Assembly: GCA_964399915.1 (NCBI GenBank)
Contig: CAYNRN010000003.1
Coordinates: 2,064 to 66,063 of the forward strand
Direction: 5' to 3'
DNA length: 64,000 bases
From: an uncultured Planctomycetales bacterium
GTDB taxonomy: Bacteria > Omnitrophota > Gorgyraeia > Gygaellales > Profunditerraquicolaceae
Shown here one piece after another: positions 3,479 to 60,010 of this stretch (position 1 is its first letter; every line of letters begins with the position of its first letter). The notes beneath the pieces were generated by a model. It was not told where the DNA came from and did no database searches. It saw only the letters and a program-made list of their open reading frames with translations. A program made the position numbers and the translations under genes.

Positions 3479-3536
3479 ATCTTCTCCTTGTTTTTTTATC
3501 CGTTTCGTTTATAACATAATTAATTTGCAATGTCAA

Positions 3537-3582
3537 CCCCGTTACAAATACGATTCTTATCATAGCATAATTTGTAACGGGG
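3537..3582. repeat. Inverted repeat CCCCGTTACAAAT-N20-ATTTGTAACGGGG flanked by direct GTCAAC; copy 1, upstream of murJ
   Basis: Arms at 3537-3549 and 3570-3582 are exact reverse complements. A second copy with the identical 20-nt spacer length is at 57604-57649. Confidence 0.8.
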
Positions 3583-3595
3583 TCAACAAACAAAT

Positions 3596-6396: not shown

Positions 6397-6485
6397 GCTC
6401 GTAACTAGTAACTCGTAATCAGGATAGTCCTTTTAAAACCTAACAAATTTCTAAAAATTACTAGTTACGAGTTACTAATTTACTA
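6384..6485. repeat. Inverted array of GTAACT hexamer repeats (about 5 forward copies, AT-rich spacer, about 4 reverse AGTTAC copies)
   Basis: cGTAACTcGTAAGctcGTAACTaGTAACTcGTAATc ... ttACTAGTTACgAGTTACtaatttACTAGTTACtaaac. Overlaps the uvrC stop codon and ends 10 nt before the next start. Confidence 0.75.
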
Positions 6486-6495
6486 GTTACTAAAC

Positions 6496-6795
6496 ATGAC
6501 TTCTTTCGCCGTAAAAGTCTATAAGGTAGTGCTAAAAATACCGCTGGGCCAGACGCGCACCTATAAATGGGTTGCAAAGAGGGCCGGTAGCCCTGGCGCA
6601 AGCCGCGCAGTCGGGCAGATCATGAAAAAGAACCCCTATCCTTTATTAATCCCCTGCCATAGGGTTGTTGCCTCTGGCGGAAAAATCGGAGGTTATAACC
6701 GGGGGGTCAAGGTTAAAAAAATGCTCCTGGATATTGAGAAACAGATAAAATCATGCCTGGAAAGCAGCGCTTGTGGTATAATTAAGAAAAAGTAA
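6496..6795 (+). CDS. Methylated-DNA--protein-cysteine methyltransferase (MGMT/Ogt) C-terminal domain protein
   Basis: Active-site motif PCHRVV (LLIPCHRVVASGGKIGGY). 99 aa, matching stand-alone MGMT DNA-binding/alkyl-acceptor domain proteins. Confidence 0.75.
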   Translation: MTSFAVKVYKVVLKIPLGQTRTYKWVAKRAGSPGASRAVGQIMKKNPYPLLIPCHRVVASGGKIGGYNRGVKVKKMLLDIEKQIKSCLESSACGIIKKK

Positions 6796-24988: not shown

Positions 24989-25957
24989 ATGAAAGCTGTA
25001 GCTTTGATTTCAGGCGGGCTGGATAGTCTATTGGCCGCAAAGCTTATACAAGGGCAGGGGGTAGAAGTATTAGCCCTGCATTTTCAGATGCCCTTTTGTG
25101 CAAGCAATGTTAAGGAAGCCGTAGCTGCCCTGGGGCTGTCCTTGAAGGAGGGAAGTATTGACGAGGAATTCATCGGCCTTATTCTTAAGCCTAAGCACGG
25201 CAGAGGTTCGCATATGAACCCTTGTATTGACTGCAAAATCCTGATGTTGCGCCGGGCAAAGGAGATGATGGCTTCTCTGGGGGCAGATTTTATTATCACC
25301 GGAGAGGTCCTGGGGCAACGTCCGATGTCGCAGCACAGGCAGAGCCTTGAGGTTATTGAGAGAGAATCAGGCCTGGAAGGCTTATTGCTACGGCCTTTAT
25401 CCGCGCGGCTGCTTGCGGAAACTCTCCCCGAAAAAAAAGGGTGGGTGAAGAGGGAGGAATTGCTCGCTTTTAACGGCAGGGCCCGTAAGCCACAGATTGA
25501 CCTTGCCGATAAATTAGGGATTCGTAATTACCGGCAGCCGGCAGGAGGCTGCCTGCTTACCGACGCAGCTTTTTCAGGCAGGATAAAAGATCTGATAAAA
25601 TATAACGAGCTTACACTGGATAACATTGAGCTTCTTAAAATCGGCAGGCATTTCAGGTTAAGCCAAACAGCCAAGCTGGTAGTAGGGAGGAATGAAATTG
25701 AGAATGGCCGCCTGATCCGCCTGAAGCAGAAAGATGACCTGATATTCATGCCTGAGATATTGGCAGGGCCTACGGCTTTAGGCAGAGGGACTTTCGATAA
25801 TGATTTGATAGAATTATCCTGCTCTATAGTCAGCCGCTACTGCGATTTAAACGGGGAAGCGGCAGCGGATATAATCTGTGAGAACGTATCCTGCGGCCAA
25901 AAAGTTTATAGCATTGCTGCGGCCAGAGAAGAACAGCTTGCTGCTTTAAGGAGATGA
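24989..25957 (+). CDS. PP-loop superfamily ATPase, ThiI/MnmA-like sulfurtransferase family (exact orthology uncertain)
   Basis: PP-loop ALISGGLDSLLAA. ThiI-like TGEVLGQRPMSQ and a CIDCK cysteine pair. Adjacent to thiM/thiE. Confidence 0.45.
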   Translation: MKAVALISGGLDSLLAAKLIQGQGVEVLALHFQMPFCASNVKEAVAALGLSLKEGSIDEEFIGLILKPKHGRGSHMNPCIDCKILMLRRAKEMMASLGADFIITGEVLGQRPMSQHRQSLEVIERESGLEGLLLRPLSARLLAETLPEKKGWVKREELLAFNGRARKPQIDLADKLGIRNYRQPAGGCLLTDAAFSGRIKDLIKYNELTLDNIELLKIGRHFRLSQTAKLVVGRNEIENGRLIRLKQKDDLIFMPEILAGPTALGRGTFDNDLIELSCSIVSRYCDLNGEAAADIICENVSCGQKVYSIAAAREEQLAALRR

Positions 25958-26006
25958 ACCCCGTTAGAAATTTTCATAACGGGAAATCGGAGGCGTTTCT
26001 AACGGG

Positions 26007-27020
26007 ATGAAGGAAGCCCTTTTTTATGAGAAACTGGATAGTCAGAGGGTGCGTTGTTTTCTCTGCGCCCACCGCTGCCACATAGAGCCGGATAAATTCG
26101 GTTTCTGCGGGGTGAGGCAGAATGTCAACGGTAAACTCTTTACTTATGCTTACGGAAAAGTCATTGCCGCTAATATCGATCCGATTGAAAAGAAACCGCT
26201 CTACCATTTTCTCCCCGGCTCAAAGAGTTTTTCCATAGCTACTATCGGCTGTAACTTCCGCTGCGGATTCTGTCAGAACTGGGAGATATCGCAGGCGTCT
26301 TTCAGGGCGCTGGATGTTTCGGGCGGCGGCCAGCTTTCTCCGGTTGATATAGTAAAACAGGCAACCGAAAATAAATGTGCCAGCATCTCTTATACCTATA
26401 CCGAACCGACGATATTCTTTGAATACGCGTATGACACCGCAAAAATAGCTAAAGAGAAAGGCCTGTTCAACAATTTCGTGACTAACGGATTCATGACAAA
26501 AGAGGCGCTGGAGATGATCAGGCCTTATCTGGATGCGGCTAACGTCGACCTTAAGTTCTTTAAAGAGAGTTCTTATCAGGAGGTTTGTTCGGGTAGACTG
26601 CAGCCGGTGCTTGACACTATACGCCTGATGAAGCGATATGGCATCTGGATTGAAGTAACTACCCTGGTTGTGCCCGGCAGTAATGACTCGCCCGAAGAAC
26701 TAAGCGCGATTGCCCGGTTTATCGCCGAGGTAGATAAAGGTATCCCCTGGCATATCTCAAGGTTTTATCCGGATTATAATTTTTCCGATAGGCAGGCTAC
26801 CCCATTGGGTAAATTAAAAGAAGCCGAGTCGCTCGGCCGCAAAGCCGGGCTAAACTACGTATACATAGGCAATGTCATAGGCGAAGGCAATGATACATAT
26901 TGCCCCAATTGTAAAAAATTATTGATTAGAAGAGAAGGCTTTTCGCTTTTAGAGTATAATATATCAGGAAACAAATGCCCCTATTGTAAGGTAGCTATAC
27001 CCGGAAGGTTTCATGGTTAA
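26007..27020 (+). CDS. Radical SAM enzyme, AmmeMemoRadiSam-system type (PFL-activase-like)
   Basis: CNFRCGFCQNW radical SAM cluster motif characteristic of this subfamily. C-terminal CPNCKK...CPYCK zinc-ribbon-like pairs. Confidence 0.6.
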   Translation: MKEALFYEKLDSQRVRCFLCAHRCHIEPDKFGFCGVRQNVNGKLFTYAYGKVIAANIDPIEKKPLYHFLPGSKSFSIATIGCNFRCGFCQNWEISQASFRALDVSGGGQLSPVDIVKQATENKCASISYTYTEPTIFFEYAYDTAKIAKEKGLFNNFVTNGFMTKEALEMIRPYLDAANVDLKFFKESSYQEVCSGRLQPVLDTIRLMKRYGIWIEVTTLVVPGSNDSPEELSAIARFIAEVDKGIPWHISRFYPDYNFSDRQATPLGKLKEAESLGRKAGLNYVYIGNVIGEGNDTYCPNCKKLLIRREGFSLLEYNISGNKCPYCKVAIPGRFHG

Positions 27021-56555: not shown

Positions 56556-57602
56556 ATGCTCAAAACTTATTATTGCGAATCCGCCCAACTCAAGACTTTC
56601 TATAACCTCTTAATAAAGAGTTTCCGCGTATTTTCGCCCGCCCCCAAAGAGTCCGTAAAAGGAGAAAAAGATTATTATTACCGCTTGGCCTCAGGCGAAG
56701 AGGAGCTTGTCTTTAACCCCTACAGGGTAGTTGAGCCGCTGAAATCGTTTTTTACCGCCCCCTTAGAAAAAGTAACGGATTATTTTACCCCCCAGGAAGA
56801 TGCCTCCCGGATAAATGAGAGAACAATCATCTTCGGGGTAAAGAGCTGCGATCTCCACGGCCATAAAATCCAGGATTATGTTTTTCTTGAAGGCGTGGAG
56901 GTAGATTCTTTATACGCCTTACGCAGGGAAAACACAATCCTCATCTCTTCCGATTGCACAGATTATAAGCAAGTCTGCCATTGCCTTGCCTGGTCGGTAA
57001 TGCCTTATCCCACGGAGGGATTTGATCTAAACCTAAGCCCCCTCAACGACGGATTCCTGGTTGATCTGGGTAGCTCCAAAGGGGAAGAGCTAATTGAGAA
57101 ATATAAAGAATTCTTTATGCTTGCTAAAGACAGCCAGATAGCCGCGCGCAAGGTCAAGCGACAGAATCTGGTAGAATGCCTCAAGAGGCACCTTTTGCCT
57201 CAAGGCCTGGTGGCGCAGGATAAAGCCCAGGAGGTCGTACGTTCGGGCTTTAGTTCCGAGACATGGAAAAAGTTTATGCTTACCTGCGTTGAGTGCGGAG
57301 GGTGTAACCTGATTTGCGACACCTGCCATTGTTTTCTGCTTGGCGACGCAAAGGCAGGCAATATAAACAAGAAGCTCAGGGTTTGGGATTCGTGTCTTTA
57401 CGCTAATTATGCCCGGGTTGCAGGAGGCGCAAACCCATTAAAAACCAGGGCGCAGCGTTTAAGGAACCGCTTTATCAAGAAGTTTGATTTTTTCGTGGAT
57501 AATATGGGTATTCCTGCCTGTTGCGGATGCGGCAGGTGTATCGAAGTCTGCCCGGGCAAGATCGATATCAGGGAAGTTTTGAAGGATTTAGCCAAGAAAT
57601 GA
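56556..57602 (+). CDS. Fe-S subunit resembling anaerobic sulfite reductase AsrA / sulfhydrogenase beta (HydB)
   Basis: Cys clusters CVECGGCNLICDTCHCF and CCGCGRCIEVCP. 348 aa, matching AsrA/HydB size. Confidence 0.6.
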   Translation: MLKTYYCESAQLKTFYNLLIKSFRVFSPAPKESVKGEKDYYYRLASGEEELVFNPYRVVEPLKSFFTAPLEKVTDYFTPQEDASRINERTIIFGVKSCDLHGHKIQDYVFLEGVEVDSLYALRRENTILISSDCTDYKQVCHCLAWSVMPYPTEGFDLNLSPLNDGFLVDLGSSKGEELIEKYKEFFMLAKDSQIAARKVKRQNLVECLKRHLLPQGLVAQDKAQEVVRSGFSSETWKKFMLTCVECGGCNLICDTCHCFLLGDAKAGNINKKLRVWDSCLYANYARVAGGANPLKTRAQRLRNRFIKKFDFFVDNMGIPACCGCGRCIEVCPGKIDIREVLKDLAKK

Positions 57603-57603
57603 A

Positions 57604-57649
57604 CCCTGTTACAAATATGTAGCGGGGGAAGGAAGGATTTGTAACGGGG
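57604..57649. repeat. Inverted repeat CCCTGTTACAAAT-N20-ATTTGTAACGGGG, copy 2 (1 mismatch between arms), ending at the start codon of the next gene
   Basis: Same arm sequence and exact 20-nt spacer as 3537-3582. Confidence 0.8.
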
Positions 57650-58464
57650 TGAAAAATATCTACCGGCCGATAGAGGGGACAATCGAAGAGATCATTGTCG
57701 AATCGCCGACAATAAAGACCTTCGTGATCAGGCCGAAGGAGGGTTTTTCCTTCAGGACCGGCCAGTTCGTAGAACTTACGCTCCCCGGCTTAGGCGAAGC
57801 GCCGTTTACCCCTTCGTCCGATCCCAATATCAAGGATAAGATTGATGTGACAATCATGAAGGCCGGGCATGTCACCTCGCTATTACACGCTGCCTCAAAG
57901 AATATCTCAGTAGGAATCCGCGGGCCCTACGGTAAGGGCTATCCTCTGGAGAGTTTCCAGGGTAAGGACATCTTAATCGTAGGCGGCGGAGTGGGGTTAG
58001 CGCCCCTGCGCTCTCTATTATTCAGCCTGTTTGCTACTATCGACCTTTATAATAAGGTAGTGCTGCGTTATGGTTCACGTTCGCCTGCGGATATAATCTA
58101 TAAAGGGGCTATCCCGCAATGGGGCAAAATGAAGAAAGTGGATGTGGTTACCTCGGTTGATGTGGGTTCGCCCGAATGGAAGGGGAACGTCGGTTTGGTC
58201 ACCACGATTTTAAACGACCTGCCGGTAGACCTAAAAAAAGCGGTAGCGATAGTCTGCGGCCCGCCGATTATGATGAAATTCGTGACCTTGAAGTTACTGG
58301 ATGTAGGTTTTAAGCCGAAGGATATATATCTTTCTATGGAGAAGAGTATGTCCTGCGGATTAGGTAAGTGCGGCCACTGCCGTATTGGCAAATATTACAT
58401 CTGTAAAGACGGCCCGGTGTTTACTTACGAGCAGTTGAAGGATGTGCACGATATCTGGGATTGA
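57649..58464 (+). CDS. FAD/NAD(P)H-binding [2Fe-2S] subunit resembling AsrB / sulfhydrogenase gamma (HydG) / PyrK
   Basis: FNR-like N-terminus (TGQFVEL), NAD-binding ILIVGGGVGLAPL, C-terminal CGLGKCGHCRIGKYYICKDGPVF 2Fe-2S motif. GTG start. Confidence 0.65.
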   Translation: MKNIYRPIEGTIEEIIVESPTIKTFVIRPKEGFSFRTGQFVELTLPGLGEAPFTPSSDPNIKDKIDVTIMKAGHVTSLLHAASKNISVGIRGPYGKGYPLESFQGKDILIVGGGVGLAPLRSLLFSLFATIDLYNKVVLRYGSRSPADIIYKGAIPQWGKMKKVDVVTSVDVGSPEWKGNVGLVTTILNDLPVDLKKAVAIVCGPPIMMKFVTLKLLDVGFKPKDIYLSMEKSMSCGLGKCGHCRIGKYYICKDGPVFTYEQLKDVHDIWD

Positions 58465-59023: not shown

Positions 59024-59938
59024 ATGTTGAAATCATTTTTTTATTATTTTATATTTCCCGGTTTCCTCTTTGCCGCCTCTGTCGGCTTAATCGCCGGCTG
59101 GGTTGACAGAAAGGTCACCGCGCGGCTGCAGTGGCGTAAAGGCCCGCCATGGCATCAGAATTTTACTGATATTGTCAAGTTAATAGGCAAGGAAGTAATC
59201 GTGCCTGCCAACGGCAGGTGGGTATTTTTACTTGCCCCTTTTATCGGGTTACTGGCTGCTTCTCTTGTGGCTGCGCTAGTCGGGGTCTCTATAATTCATC
59301 CTCAGCAGAGTTTTGTCGGAGACTTGATCGTAGTGCTCTACCTTTTAACCATTCCGGCGATATCCATGATTATTGCCGCCTCGAGCTGCGGTAATCCGCT
59401 TGCTTCCGTAGGCGCTTCCCGGGAGATAAAGCTAGTCTTAGGATATGAATTACCTTTTATAATTTCTATAGTGGCGATGGCCATTAAATCATCCGGCGCC
59501 ATCCAGCTGGGTTCAATTCTTAATATCCAGGCTGCTTATGGTTCAAACATAGCCTCCTGGTCGGGATTCTTCGCCTTTATAGTTGTCATTTTCTGTATTC
59601 AGGCGAAACTTGGGTTTGTCCCCTTTGACGCTTCCGAGGCGGAGCAGGAGATTGTCGGAGGCGTTTTGATAGACTATTCCGGAGTACTGCTTGCGTTATT
59701 CAAGCTTACCAAGGCAGTGCTTCTATATACGCTGCCGCTCTTTATGATAATACTTTTCATGGGTAAAGATTTGAGCCTGTTGTTTCTGGCGCTTAAATAT
59801 ACGGGTATACTGGTAATCATTATCCTGATAAAAAATACCAATCCCCGATTGCGCATTGATCAGGCAATGAGGTTTTTCTGGGGGCCGGTAACGCTATTAG
59901 CGATAGCAGCATTAATACTGGCGTCAATTGGACTATAA
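59024..59938 (+). CDS. Membrane subunit of group-4 hydrogenase (NuoH/EchB/HycD family)
   Basis: NuoH-like pattern (RKVTARLQWRKGPP). 8 TM helices. Start taken at ATG 59024 (MLKSFFYY...); the ORF track extends to 58979 through an intergenic palindrome. Confidence 0.7.
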   Translation: MLKSFFYYFIFPGFLFAASVGLIAGWVDRKVTARLQWRKGPPWHQNFTDIVKLIGKEVIVPANGRWVFLLAPFIGLLAASLVAALVGVSIIHPQQSFVGDLIVVLYLLTIPAISMIIAASSCGNPLASVGASREIKLVLGYELPFIISIVAMAIKSSGAIQLGSILNIQAAYGSNIASWSGFFAFIVVIFCIQAKLGFVPFDASEAEQEIVGGVLIDYSGVLLALFKLTKAVLLYTLPLFMIILFMGKDLSLLFLALKYTGILVIIILIKNTNPRLRIDQAMRFFWGPVTLLAIAALILASIGL

Positions 59939-60010
59939 TATATAACCGCAGGTCAAGGTTAAGGTTGGGGTCGAGAAATAAAACCTAGACCTTGACCTAG
60001 GCCTTAGAAT

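Follow-up and report, generated by a model that had tools for sequence, protein, structure and literature searches.

In the hydrogenase operon of an uncultured Omnitrophota bacterium, the genes for an AsrA-like iron-sulfur protein and an AsrB-like FAD/NAD-binding protein are separated by a 46-bp palindrome, CCCTGTTACAAAT-N20-ATTTGTAACGGGG, whose right arm runs into the start codon of the second gene. The palindrome lies at positions 57604-57649 of the 64,000-nt stretch analysed here (the window; contig CAYNRN010000003.1) and is referred to below as copy 2, a second member of the same family in the window being copy 1. Does this structure regulate the operon, or has it another origin? An initial reading of the letters alone (the sequence-only reading) took it for a candidate regulator, acting either in the mRNA or as an operator. 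All that this reading stated about the layout between the AsrA-like stop and the AsrB-like GTG was borne out, including the right arm finishing on the G of the GTG and the Shine-Dalgarno (SD)-like run in the spacer; it did not mention the TGAA direct repeats on either side or a third copy elsewhere in the window (Table 1). In light of the comparisons described below, we think it probable that copy 2 is a miniature without coding capacity and belongs to a family of small mobile palindromes in Candidatus Omnitrophota.

Copy 2 occupies an ancestral stop/start overlap

Homologues of the AsrB-like protein number in the thousands; the best are 78-90% identical, and nearly all are 271 aa long and come from sources named Candidatus Omnitrophota or Omnitrophica; an exact match to the protein of the window is absent from the assembly index. 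In relatives the operon continues with genes for Fer4_11, NuoH-like, NuoB-like, NuoC-like and NuoD/[NiFe] large-subunit-like proteins, a PhoU-domain protein and Mrp/Mbh antiporter-type subunits. The gene set specifies a hydrogenase-like complex, membrane-bound and of group-4 type, that includes an AsrA/AsrB-like module.

Nine orthologous operons were sampled. In seven of them (loci L032, L033, L034, L152, L153, L154 and L156) the two genes meet in a plain ATGA overlap with no intergenic DNA. Among these is the locus with the closest AsrB-like protein (L152, 90% amino-acid identity), whose empty junction, aagaaATGAGAAATAT, holds a single copy of TGAA. The filled junction of the window reads gccaagaaATGAA[46 bp]TGAAAAATATCTACCGG against gctaagaaATGAGAAATATTTACCGG in L152 or, over a longer span, gccaagaaATGAA[46 bp]TGAAAAATATCTACCGGCCGATA against gctaagaaATGAGAAATATTTACCGGCCGATA. 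Since the orthologues have the ATGA overlap with one TGAA and the window has TGAA on both sides of the 46 bp, the comparison shows copy 2 to be an insertion into an ancestral ATGA stop/start overlap, flanked by a 4-bp TGAA duplication. The left TGAA keeps the upstream TGA stop, while the terminal G of the element and the right TGAA yield GTG-AAA in the old frame; by alignment, this GTG matches the M-K-N-I-Y-R-P start of the orthologues.

The same point is occupied in L029 (83% identity) by a palindrome with unrelated arms (CCCCGCCCTTACTC...GAGTAAGAGCGGGG) and the same TGAA repeat. A second filled/empty pair was found at the BacA/PfkB junction, which in L033 consists of ATGAG, an element CCCCGCCCTT...GCGGGG and TGAG, and in L029, L032 and the window simply reads ATGAG.

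As RNA, the arms of copy 2 form 13 pairs, one of them a U-G wobble (12/13 matches as DNA); neither arm is self-complementary by itself. The 13-bp hairpin is the minimum-energy structure of positions 57585-57675 (-23.2 kcal/mol, z-score -2.7), and the UGA stop of the AsrA-like open reading frame (ORF) lies one base ahead of its left arm. The motif GTTACAAAT-N10..30-ATTTGTAAC occurs twice in the window and in none of 100 shuffled versions; a pattern extended to 26 bases by adding CCC/GGG, with up to three mismatches allowed, retrieved the same two copies only. A promoter and terminator scan gave no promoter-like or terminator-like site at copy 2, which also lacks the features of an intrinsic terminator, its stem being followed by GUGAAAAAUAUC. 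A search of Rfam 15 returned no match at the gathering threshold in the whole window and none at E-values up to 1 in positions 57450-57800.

Table 1. Coordinates of copy 2, of the genes on either side of it and of the further family members in the window.
Feature	Position	Strand	Remarks
Upstream gene, Fer4_22 / AsrA-like iron-sulfur protein	56556..57602	+	TGA stop at 57600-57602
Left copy of the 4-bp direct repeat, TGAA	57600..57603	+	Includes the TGA stop of the Fer4_22 (AsrA-like) gene
Left terminal arm, CCCTGTTACAAAT	57604..57616	+	Family consensus CCCCGTTACAAAT
Loop/cargo of the junction (SD-type) subfamily, ATGTAGCGGGGGAAGGAAGG	57617..57636, 20 nt	+	Kindred loops at unrelated ATGA gene junctions
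Internal decoy, GTAGCGGGG	57619..57627	+	Copies the outer 9 nt of the right arm
Purine-rich SD-like run, GGAAGGAAGG	57627..57636	+	12 nt upstream of the GTG
Right terminal arm, ATTTGTAACGGGG	57637..57649	+	The GTG start begins with the final G of this arm
Right copy of the direct repeat, TGAA	57650..57653	+	Contributes TG to the GTG start, then the opening bases of codon 2
Downstream gene, AsrB-like FAD/NAD-binding protein	57649..58464	+	GTG start at 57649-57651 here, ATG in empty-site orthologues
Copy 1, same family	3537..3582	.	Flanked by TCAA (3533-3536, 3583-3586)
Sister-family copy, CCCCGTTAGAAAT-N23-GTTTCTAACGGGA	25959..26007	+	Flanked by TGAA (25955-25958, 26008-26011)

Copy 2 belongs to a dispersed family with 4-bp flanking repeats

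A scan of species-representative genomes located the arms mainly in metagenome-assembled genomes (MAGs) of Omnitrophota, plus some MAGs labelled Planctomycetia; the genome of the window itself was not among the hits. Scanning metagenomes yielded 117 copies on 116 contigs; their loops are 14-30 nt long, and 92 of the copies are non-redundant. Elements measure 44-60 bp and have CCCC...GGGG termini. An exact 4-bp direct repeat flanks 59 of the 92, and at least three of the four positions match in 66; the corresponding controls gave 2 copies for inverted tetramers, 1 for 5-bp flanks and none for shifted tetramers. When the distinct repeat-flanked elements from all loci are pooled (n=83), the repeat conforms to YNNR in all but one (82/83), and in 74 it has the form T..A or C..G, which adds one more pair to the stem. 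Scanning the window itself for stems of at least 10 nt bordered by 4-bp repeats produced four matches, three of them family copies, versus none in five shuffled windows. The fourth match (59628-59664, TTTG) lies within the NuoH-like coding sequence, has unrelated arms and was taken as chance.

Both arms vary in concert from family to family, as in GTTAC/GTAAC, GTTAG/CTAAC, GTTGC/GCAAC and TCCC/GGGA. Further two-arm variants are GTTAGAAAT/ATTTCTAAC, GTTGCAAAT/ATTTGCAAC, TCCC.../...GGGA, GTCC.../...GGAC and CCAC.../...GTGG, and a separate CCCCGCCC family exists. Nesting is seen at three loci (L139, L150 and L005), where the loop of a GTTAGAAAT element contains a GTTACAAAT element bordered by a separate CTAA or TTAG repeat, and at four others (L027, L059, L082 and L001) tandem copies are divided by the 4-bp repeat alone. 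Nesting, tandem copies, flanking repeats and co-varying arms are hallmarks of mobile DNA.

The repeats recur in particular contexts. All 18 elements with a TTGA repeat, copy 1 included, adjoin TTGAC(A/G/T)-N16-17-TAnnnT, the repeat making up the first four bases of the -35 box; copy 1 on the minus strand adjoins a near-consensus rpsT promoter (-35 TTGACA at 3536-3531, 17 nt, TATAAA at 3513-3508). The CGTG repeat corresponds to nucleotides 6-9 of tRNA-Pro, and the CGGGG end of the element plus the repeat restores the tRNA 5' end. Repeats of the TAAA type are located at stop codons, those reading TGAA or TGAG at ATGA overlaps. This pattern may reflect targeting or survivorship; for the elements at -35 boxes, it suggests either that the hexamers are targeted or that their position is selected for.

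The tRNA-Pro 5' end is a hotspot of insertion (L027 7307-7413, L059, L082, L066, L158/L159 at about 1100-1225 and L168 at 970-1050). Arrays of one to three elements, each then CGTG, stand between the promoter and the tRNA, and the old 5' end (GGGGCGTG) remains upstream. Two loci from different samples, L158 and L159, share an identical GIY-YIG protein (see below) and identical flanks and are one tandem unit apart. The idea that the loops provide a -10 box for tRNA-Pro transcription was dropped, because the arrays have a strong promoter (TTGAAA-N16-TATAAT, or TTGATATAAT) upstream of them and the hexamers found by the right arm are as expected of AT-rich sequence.

A separate observation concerns a 27-nt loop, ACCAAAGCNCTTAGNGAAANAAACAAG, present in L075, L123 (6458 and 8278), L050 (5642), L068, L093 and L145. 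It occurs with GTTACAAAT and GTTAGAAAT arms alike, mostly at TAAA repeats past stop codons. Loop type and flanking tetramer thus seem correlated, and the tetramer could be specified by the element and not simply duplicated.

Longer relatives encode a GIY-YIG nuclease

Pairs of the same arms with a 4-bp repeat were also sought as longer elements in 1.1 Mb of loci. The search gave L003 5741-6065 (TGAG repeat), which encodes a 90-aa protein; no kilobase-scale element of this description was present in the 1.1 Mb, none exceeding 325 bp. Homologous ORFs adjoining arms were located by tblastn in L107, L135, L124/L074, L086, L042, L066 and L130, and a second one in L003. These coding relatives, 277-325 bp long, resemble the short copies in their ends and in their flanking repeats, and their sole cargo is a gene for a GIY-YIG nuclease of 83-104 aa. 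The proteins match PF01541 (GIY-YIG) only, with E-values of 1e-15 to 1e-18; their nearest solved structures are UPF0213 proteins (PDB 1zg2 and 1ywl), and at 40-49% identity the catalytic Tyr, Tyr-x-Gly, Arg, His-Asn and Glu are invariant.

One such element, at 836-1112 of L164/L166, has the architecture of copy 2 with an ORF in the loop. It lies between methyltransferase and glycosyltransferase genes and reads ATGAA/CCCCGTTAGAGAT-6 nt-ATG...CTA ACG GGG/TGA AAA (slashes at the element ends), with CCCCGTTAGAGAT as terminal inverted repeat (TIR), a TGAA repeat and an ATGA overlap; the stop codon of the ORF comes from the duplicated TGA. A further coding element, in L135, has 15-bp arms and a TAAA repeat, and L124 and L107 supply additional examples. 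In L168, an ORF-less unit has an interior identical to the last 36 nt of the adjoining ORF-bearing unit, and because of this identity it is, on the face of the sequence, an internal-deletion derivative of its neighbour.

We propose that the short copies would be deletion derivatives of nuclease-bearing elements, and that the GIY-YIG nuclease, supplied in trans, would move them via their CCCCG...CGGGG hairpin ends. Movement by this protein, like an action of the decoy and SD run on translation (see below), is what we infer from the arrangement. Whether the nuclease is itself the transposase, recognising the CCCCG...CGGGG ends as a hairpin or cruciform and making the 4-bp YNNR duplication, is a more tentative matter, on which we lean somewhat toward doubt.

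Alternatively, the palindromes might be the primary mobile or structural unit, moved by another enzyme, with the GIY-YIG genes as passengers such as homing endonuclease genes that invade the loops. GIY-YIG genes are classic free-standing homing endonucleases, and the nested copies tell us that large insertions into the loop are tolerated. Moreover, several Omnitrophota have a conserved order rph - rdgB - GIY-YIG - palindrome array - tRNA-Pro, in which the tRNA-Pro-linked GIY-YIG copy has lost its left arm. However, the nuclease gene is the sole cargo of every long element seen, and the ORF begins 6-25 nt past the left arm and ends in or at the right arm. Arm type also follows protein clade, GCACC arms going with ...YIG(Y/S)TK... 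and GTTA arms with ...YTGFT..., and no other transposase-like gene was noticed adjoining any element, although no systematic search for one was made. On these grounds we consider a passenger role unlikely, while still giving it some weight.

Elements at gene junctions carry an SD run and a decoy arm

Several loci examined as possible orthologues of the hydrogenase junction (L055, L065, L072, L080, L085, L116 and L135) were rejected as such, their downstream proteins being 6-9% identical to the AsrB-like protein (ungapped). Loci with similar loops thus represent different junctions, and a junction subtype was therefore recognised: 16 distinct elements, from three arm families, located between ...ATGA[AG] and TG... 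of unrelated genes. A purine-rich SD run is found on the 3' side of the loop in 13-14 of the 16, and in reversed position in none (loops judged by eye). In addition, a 9-mer located 3-9 nt past the left arm in every one of the 16 is the complement of that arm's nine outer bases. This 9-mer, an internal copy of the outer end of the right arm, is referred to here as the decoy. Pairing at 8 or more of the nine positions is possible in 14/16 junction elements, compared to 1/84 of the other elements; in copy 2 the decoy can pair with 57604-57612 at 9/9 positions, G-U allowed (p about 0.01). The decoy shifts with the arm family, reading GTAACGGGG, CTAAYGGGG or GGGCTGGGG. The sister-family copy of the window, at the junction of ORFs 24989-25957 and 26007-27020, ends in an A that provides the ATG start, and its loop holds GGAGG as SD run together with a decoy that is weaker (ATAACGGGA).

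When the right arm is taken as unavailable, as under an initiating ribosome, the hairpin between left arm and decoy is predicted at -11 to -17.6 kcal/mol across the junction elements, versus -18.5 to -26 kcal/mol for the full stem; the values for copy 2 are -15.1 and -18.7 kcal/mol. From these folding energies we infer that the decoy would remove most of the energetic penalty that the terminal stem imposes on initiation. Such an architecture, if the model is correct, suggests that selection has favoured neutralising the stem over using it.

In the transcript, the 13-bp stem, when fully formed, would cover the start codon. When a ribosome holds the stretch from the SD to the start, the left arm may pair with the decoy instead, and opening would then cost about 4 kcal/mol net instead of about 19. 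The left arm would also be melted by a ribosome that terminates on the UGA, which precedes the stem by one base. Because decoy pairing and the terminating ribosome would both relieve the stem, the insertion would be tolerated, with at most a mild tuning of downstream translation or of transcript stability.

These considerations bear on the view, in line with the sequence-only reading, that the hydrogenase operon has in this hairpin a cis-regulatory RNA dedicated to it, evolved to hide the start region and so to fix how much the later genes are translated relative to the first. The hairpin does exist, and an effect on translation is plausible because the stem's 3' strand reaches the start codon and the SD run lies in the loop; what does not stand is the degree of sequestration, most of which the decoy would offset. 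With no promoter or terminator found, the element would be co-transcribed with the operon, and the alternative hairpin might in principle serve as a switch. However, the element is missing from 7/9 sampled orthologous operons, the closest relative included, and an eighth has an unrelated palindrome; absence from orthologous operons is what the sequence-only reading had named as refuting its proposal, and by that criterion copy 2 is not a conserved regulator of this operon. The same type of element also occurs at unrelated junctions and in non-transcribed contexts, and the decoy architecture lessens sequestration instead of exploiting it. A dedicated regulatory function therefore appears improbable.

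Observations that weigh against the proposed origin

Several points count against the view that copy 2 is a mobile miniature whose decoy and SD run act on translation. No transposition was observed, the mobility of the family being read from its sequences. About a third of the copies are without an exact flanking repeat, as is L107. A small set of tetramers turns up repeatedly, with every TTGA falling in a -35 box and every CGTG in tRNA-Pro, which could mean targeting or selection and not simple duplication. [quoted passage not shown] A GIY-YIG gene is absent from the 64-kb window by tblastn and was seen in related loci instead. To our knowledge, GIY-YIG enzymes are not established as transposases. 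The published Ssn enzymes cut single-stranded DNA (PMC11893778), which by itself does not predict a 4-bp duplication. As for the decoy, the subfamilies are related by ancestry, so that the p-values are not independent; the decoy could instead work in the DNA, as a subterminal repeat to which a protein binds, and the 12-nt spacing from SD to start is long.

Relation to known systems

The closest published system is that of the Ssn GIY-YIG nucleases with their hairpin repeats. Ssn proteins (SsnA) are small single-domain GIY-YIG nucleases flanked by NTS/SRM hairpin repeats that are dispersed in hundreds of copies (Chenal et al. 2025, Nat Commun, PMC11893778). They cut single-stranded DNA beside the repeat, and the authors remarked on the IS-like architecture without showing mobility (PMC11893778). 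Common to both systems are a small single-domain GIY-YIG gene bracketed by inverted, hairpin-forming sequences, a genome-wide scatter, and repeats and protein that seem to co-evolve (PMC11893778). They differ in that the Ssn gene stands between two complete short hairpins with loops of 0-5 nt (PMC11893778), whereas the Omnitrophota elements enclose the gene, or a 14-30-nt loop, within one hairpin made of two 12-15-nt arms. Neither flanking duplications nor empty sites are reported for Ssn (PMC11893778); the Omnitrophota elements have both. A regular-expression search for the SRM motif (HGTCWY..YYVSBRH..WNVSBRG..RNCYNB) gave no match on either strand of the window or in the three elements.

MITEs, whose general features are described in PMC3184786, have terminal inverted repeats, a target-site duplication, no coding capacity, many dispersed copies and presence/absence polymorphism; co-transcription with neighbouring genes into an mRNA hairpin and, as L168 suggests, a probable origin by internal deletion of a coding element are further likenesses. 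In the Omnitrophota family we find TIRs (13 bp, 12/13), a duplication of fixed length (4 bp) and filled and empty sites in relatives, and a longer element with the same type of ends (277-325 bp) that encodes a GIY-YIG nuclease, a protein not known as a transposase. The differences are that the Omnitrophota element is much smaller (44-60 bp), that interiors are wholly different between subfamilies, and that the coding relative has a GIY-YIG nuclease and not a DDE transposase. Correia elements duplicate TA, whereas the Omnitrophota elements duplicate 4 bp of the form YNNR.

A resemblance might also be sought in REP/REPIN-type elements, moved as single-stranded DNA by a RAYT or an IS200/IS605-like HUH transposase. 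REPINs likewise have two conserved inverted segments around a less conserved, variable spacer, with compensatory changes; again like the Omnitrophota elements, they insert into and beside one another and form clusters by a nuclease gene that is present once and passed on vertically (Bertels and Rainey 2011, PMC3116915). In the Omnitrophota elements, however, the single arm is not palindromic, the conserved 5' GTAG-like tetranucleotide is absent, most copies have 4-bp direct repeats of variable sequence, and the associated gene belongs to the GIY-YIG superfamily instead of being a Y1 HUH enzyme. IS200/IS605-type transposition is not known to us to yield such flanking repeats. We regard a REPIN-like mechanism as very improbable.

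Hardly credible, in spite of the perfect dyad symmetry and of the location of copy 1 and 17 other copies directly upstream of a -35 box, is the further suggestion of an operator for a palindrome-binding transcription factor, given that half-site spacing ranges from 14 to 30 bp, that copy 2 is intercistronic with no promoter found there, that copies occupy contexts as unrelated as tRNA-Pro leaders, positions right after stop codons, -35 boxes and gene overlaps, and that co-varying arms with flanking duplications are features of insertions. Operators of the Rex, Crp/Fnr, LexA and NikR types and integron attC sites were rejected as identities on half-site order, consensus or spacing, the spacing being variable.

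Certain dispersed repeats supply translation-initiation signals to the downstream gene (PMC3184786), a delivery role like that proposed for the junction elements. Those repeats are without terminal inverted repeats, and we know of no decoy-arm architecture described for them. In our literature searches, neither these arms nor GIY-YIG elements with TIRs and duplications nor Omnitrophota repeats turned up. We know of no report of translation-signal repeats inside ATGA overlaps.

Implications

With copy 2 recognised as an insertion, the annotation of the hydrogenase operon changes: the GTG start and the 46-nt gap are by-products of insertion and not ancestral, and any regulatory effect is lineage-specific. 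Very small mobile DNA would be able to enter the tightest spot of an operon, the ATGA overlap, and stay harmless, with both codons rebuilt from the duplication and the terminal G, a ribosome-binding site of its own and a decoy freeing the start. The link to GIY-YIG genes, the flanking duplications and the empty sites constitute sequence evidence for mobility, which the Ssn paper did not show (PMC11893778). Should the nuclease prove to be the transposase, this would be a class of prokaryotic DNA transposon whose enzyme is of none of the DDE, HUH, serine, tyrosine and Cas1 kinds. The miniatures would then be portable intercistronic cassettes (stop, SD, decoy arm, start) that could split overlapping genes without polarity, and the Ssn / hairpin-repeat systems would gain a directly testable origin in transposition.

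In Omnitrophota genomes the family is, in addition, useful as a marker and gives rise to annotation artefacts, including duplicated tRNA-Pro 5' ends and gene calls through arms. At L164 801-1115 public gene calls cross the element arms, the calls of three genes overlapping by 24-34 nt, and for this reason starts and stops near the elements are likely to be mis-annotated systematically in Omnitrophota MAGs.

Further palindromes in the window and in other lineages

Two additional structures were noticed in the window. A different palindrome (AGGTCAAGGTTAAGGTT-N15-AACCTAGACCTTGACCT) lies at 59939-60010 and fills the stretch, about 70 nt, from the NuoH-like to the NuoB-like gene. These genes are spaced only by TAATATG or TAAATG in L029, L033, L153 and L154, and the palindrome is probably another insertion in the hydrogenase operon. 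At 6398-6480, upstream of ORF 6496-6795, there is a long inverted repeat of GTAAC-containing units (CTCGTAACTAGTAACTCGTAA ... TTACGAGTTACTAGTTACGAG, about 46 nt apart).

Outside Omnitrophota, Psychroflexus-like Bacteroidota have multiple copies of a palindrome with identical 13-nt arms and a conserved 21-nt loop, without 4-bp repeats (L009, L014, L017 5545-5585, L107 3860-3906 and 4198-4490, and other Antarctic-lake contigs). These copies sit among IS110-like and IS91-like ORF fragments, and L107 also contains a GIY-YIG ORF bracketed by CCCCGTTAGAAAA/...TTTCTAACGGGG. The reach of the family may thus go beyond Omnitrophota.

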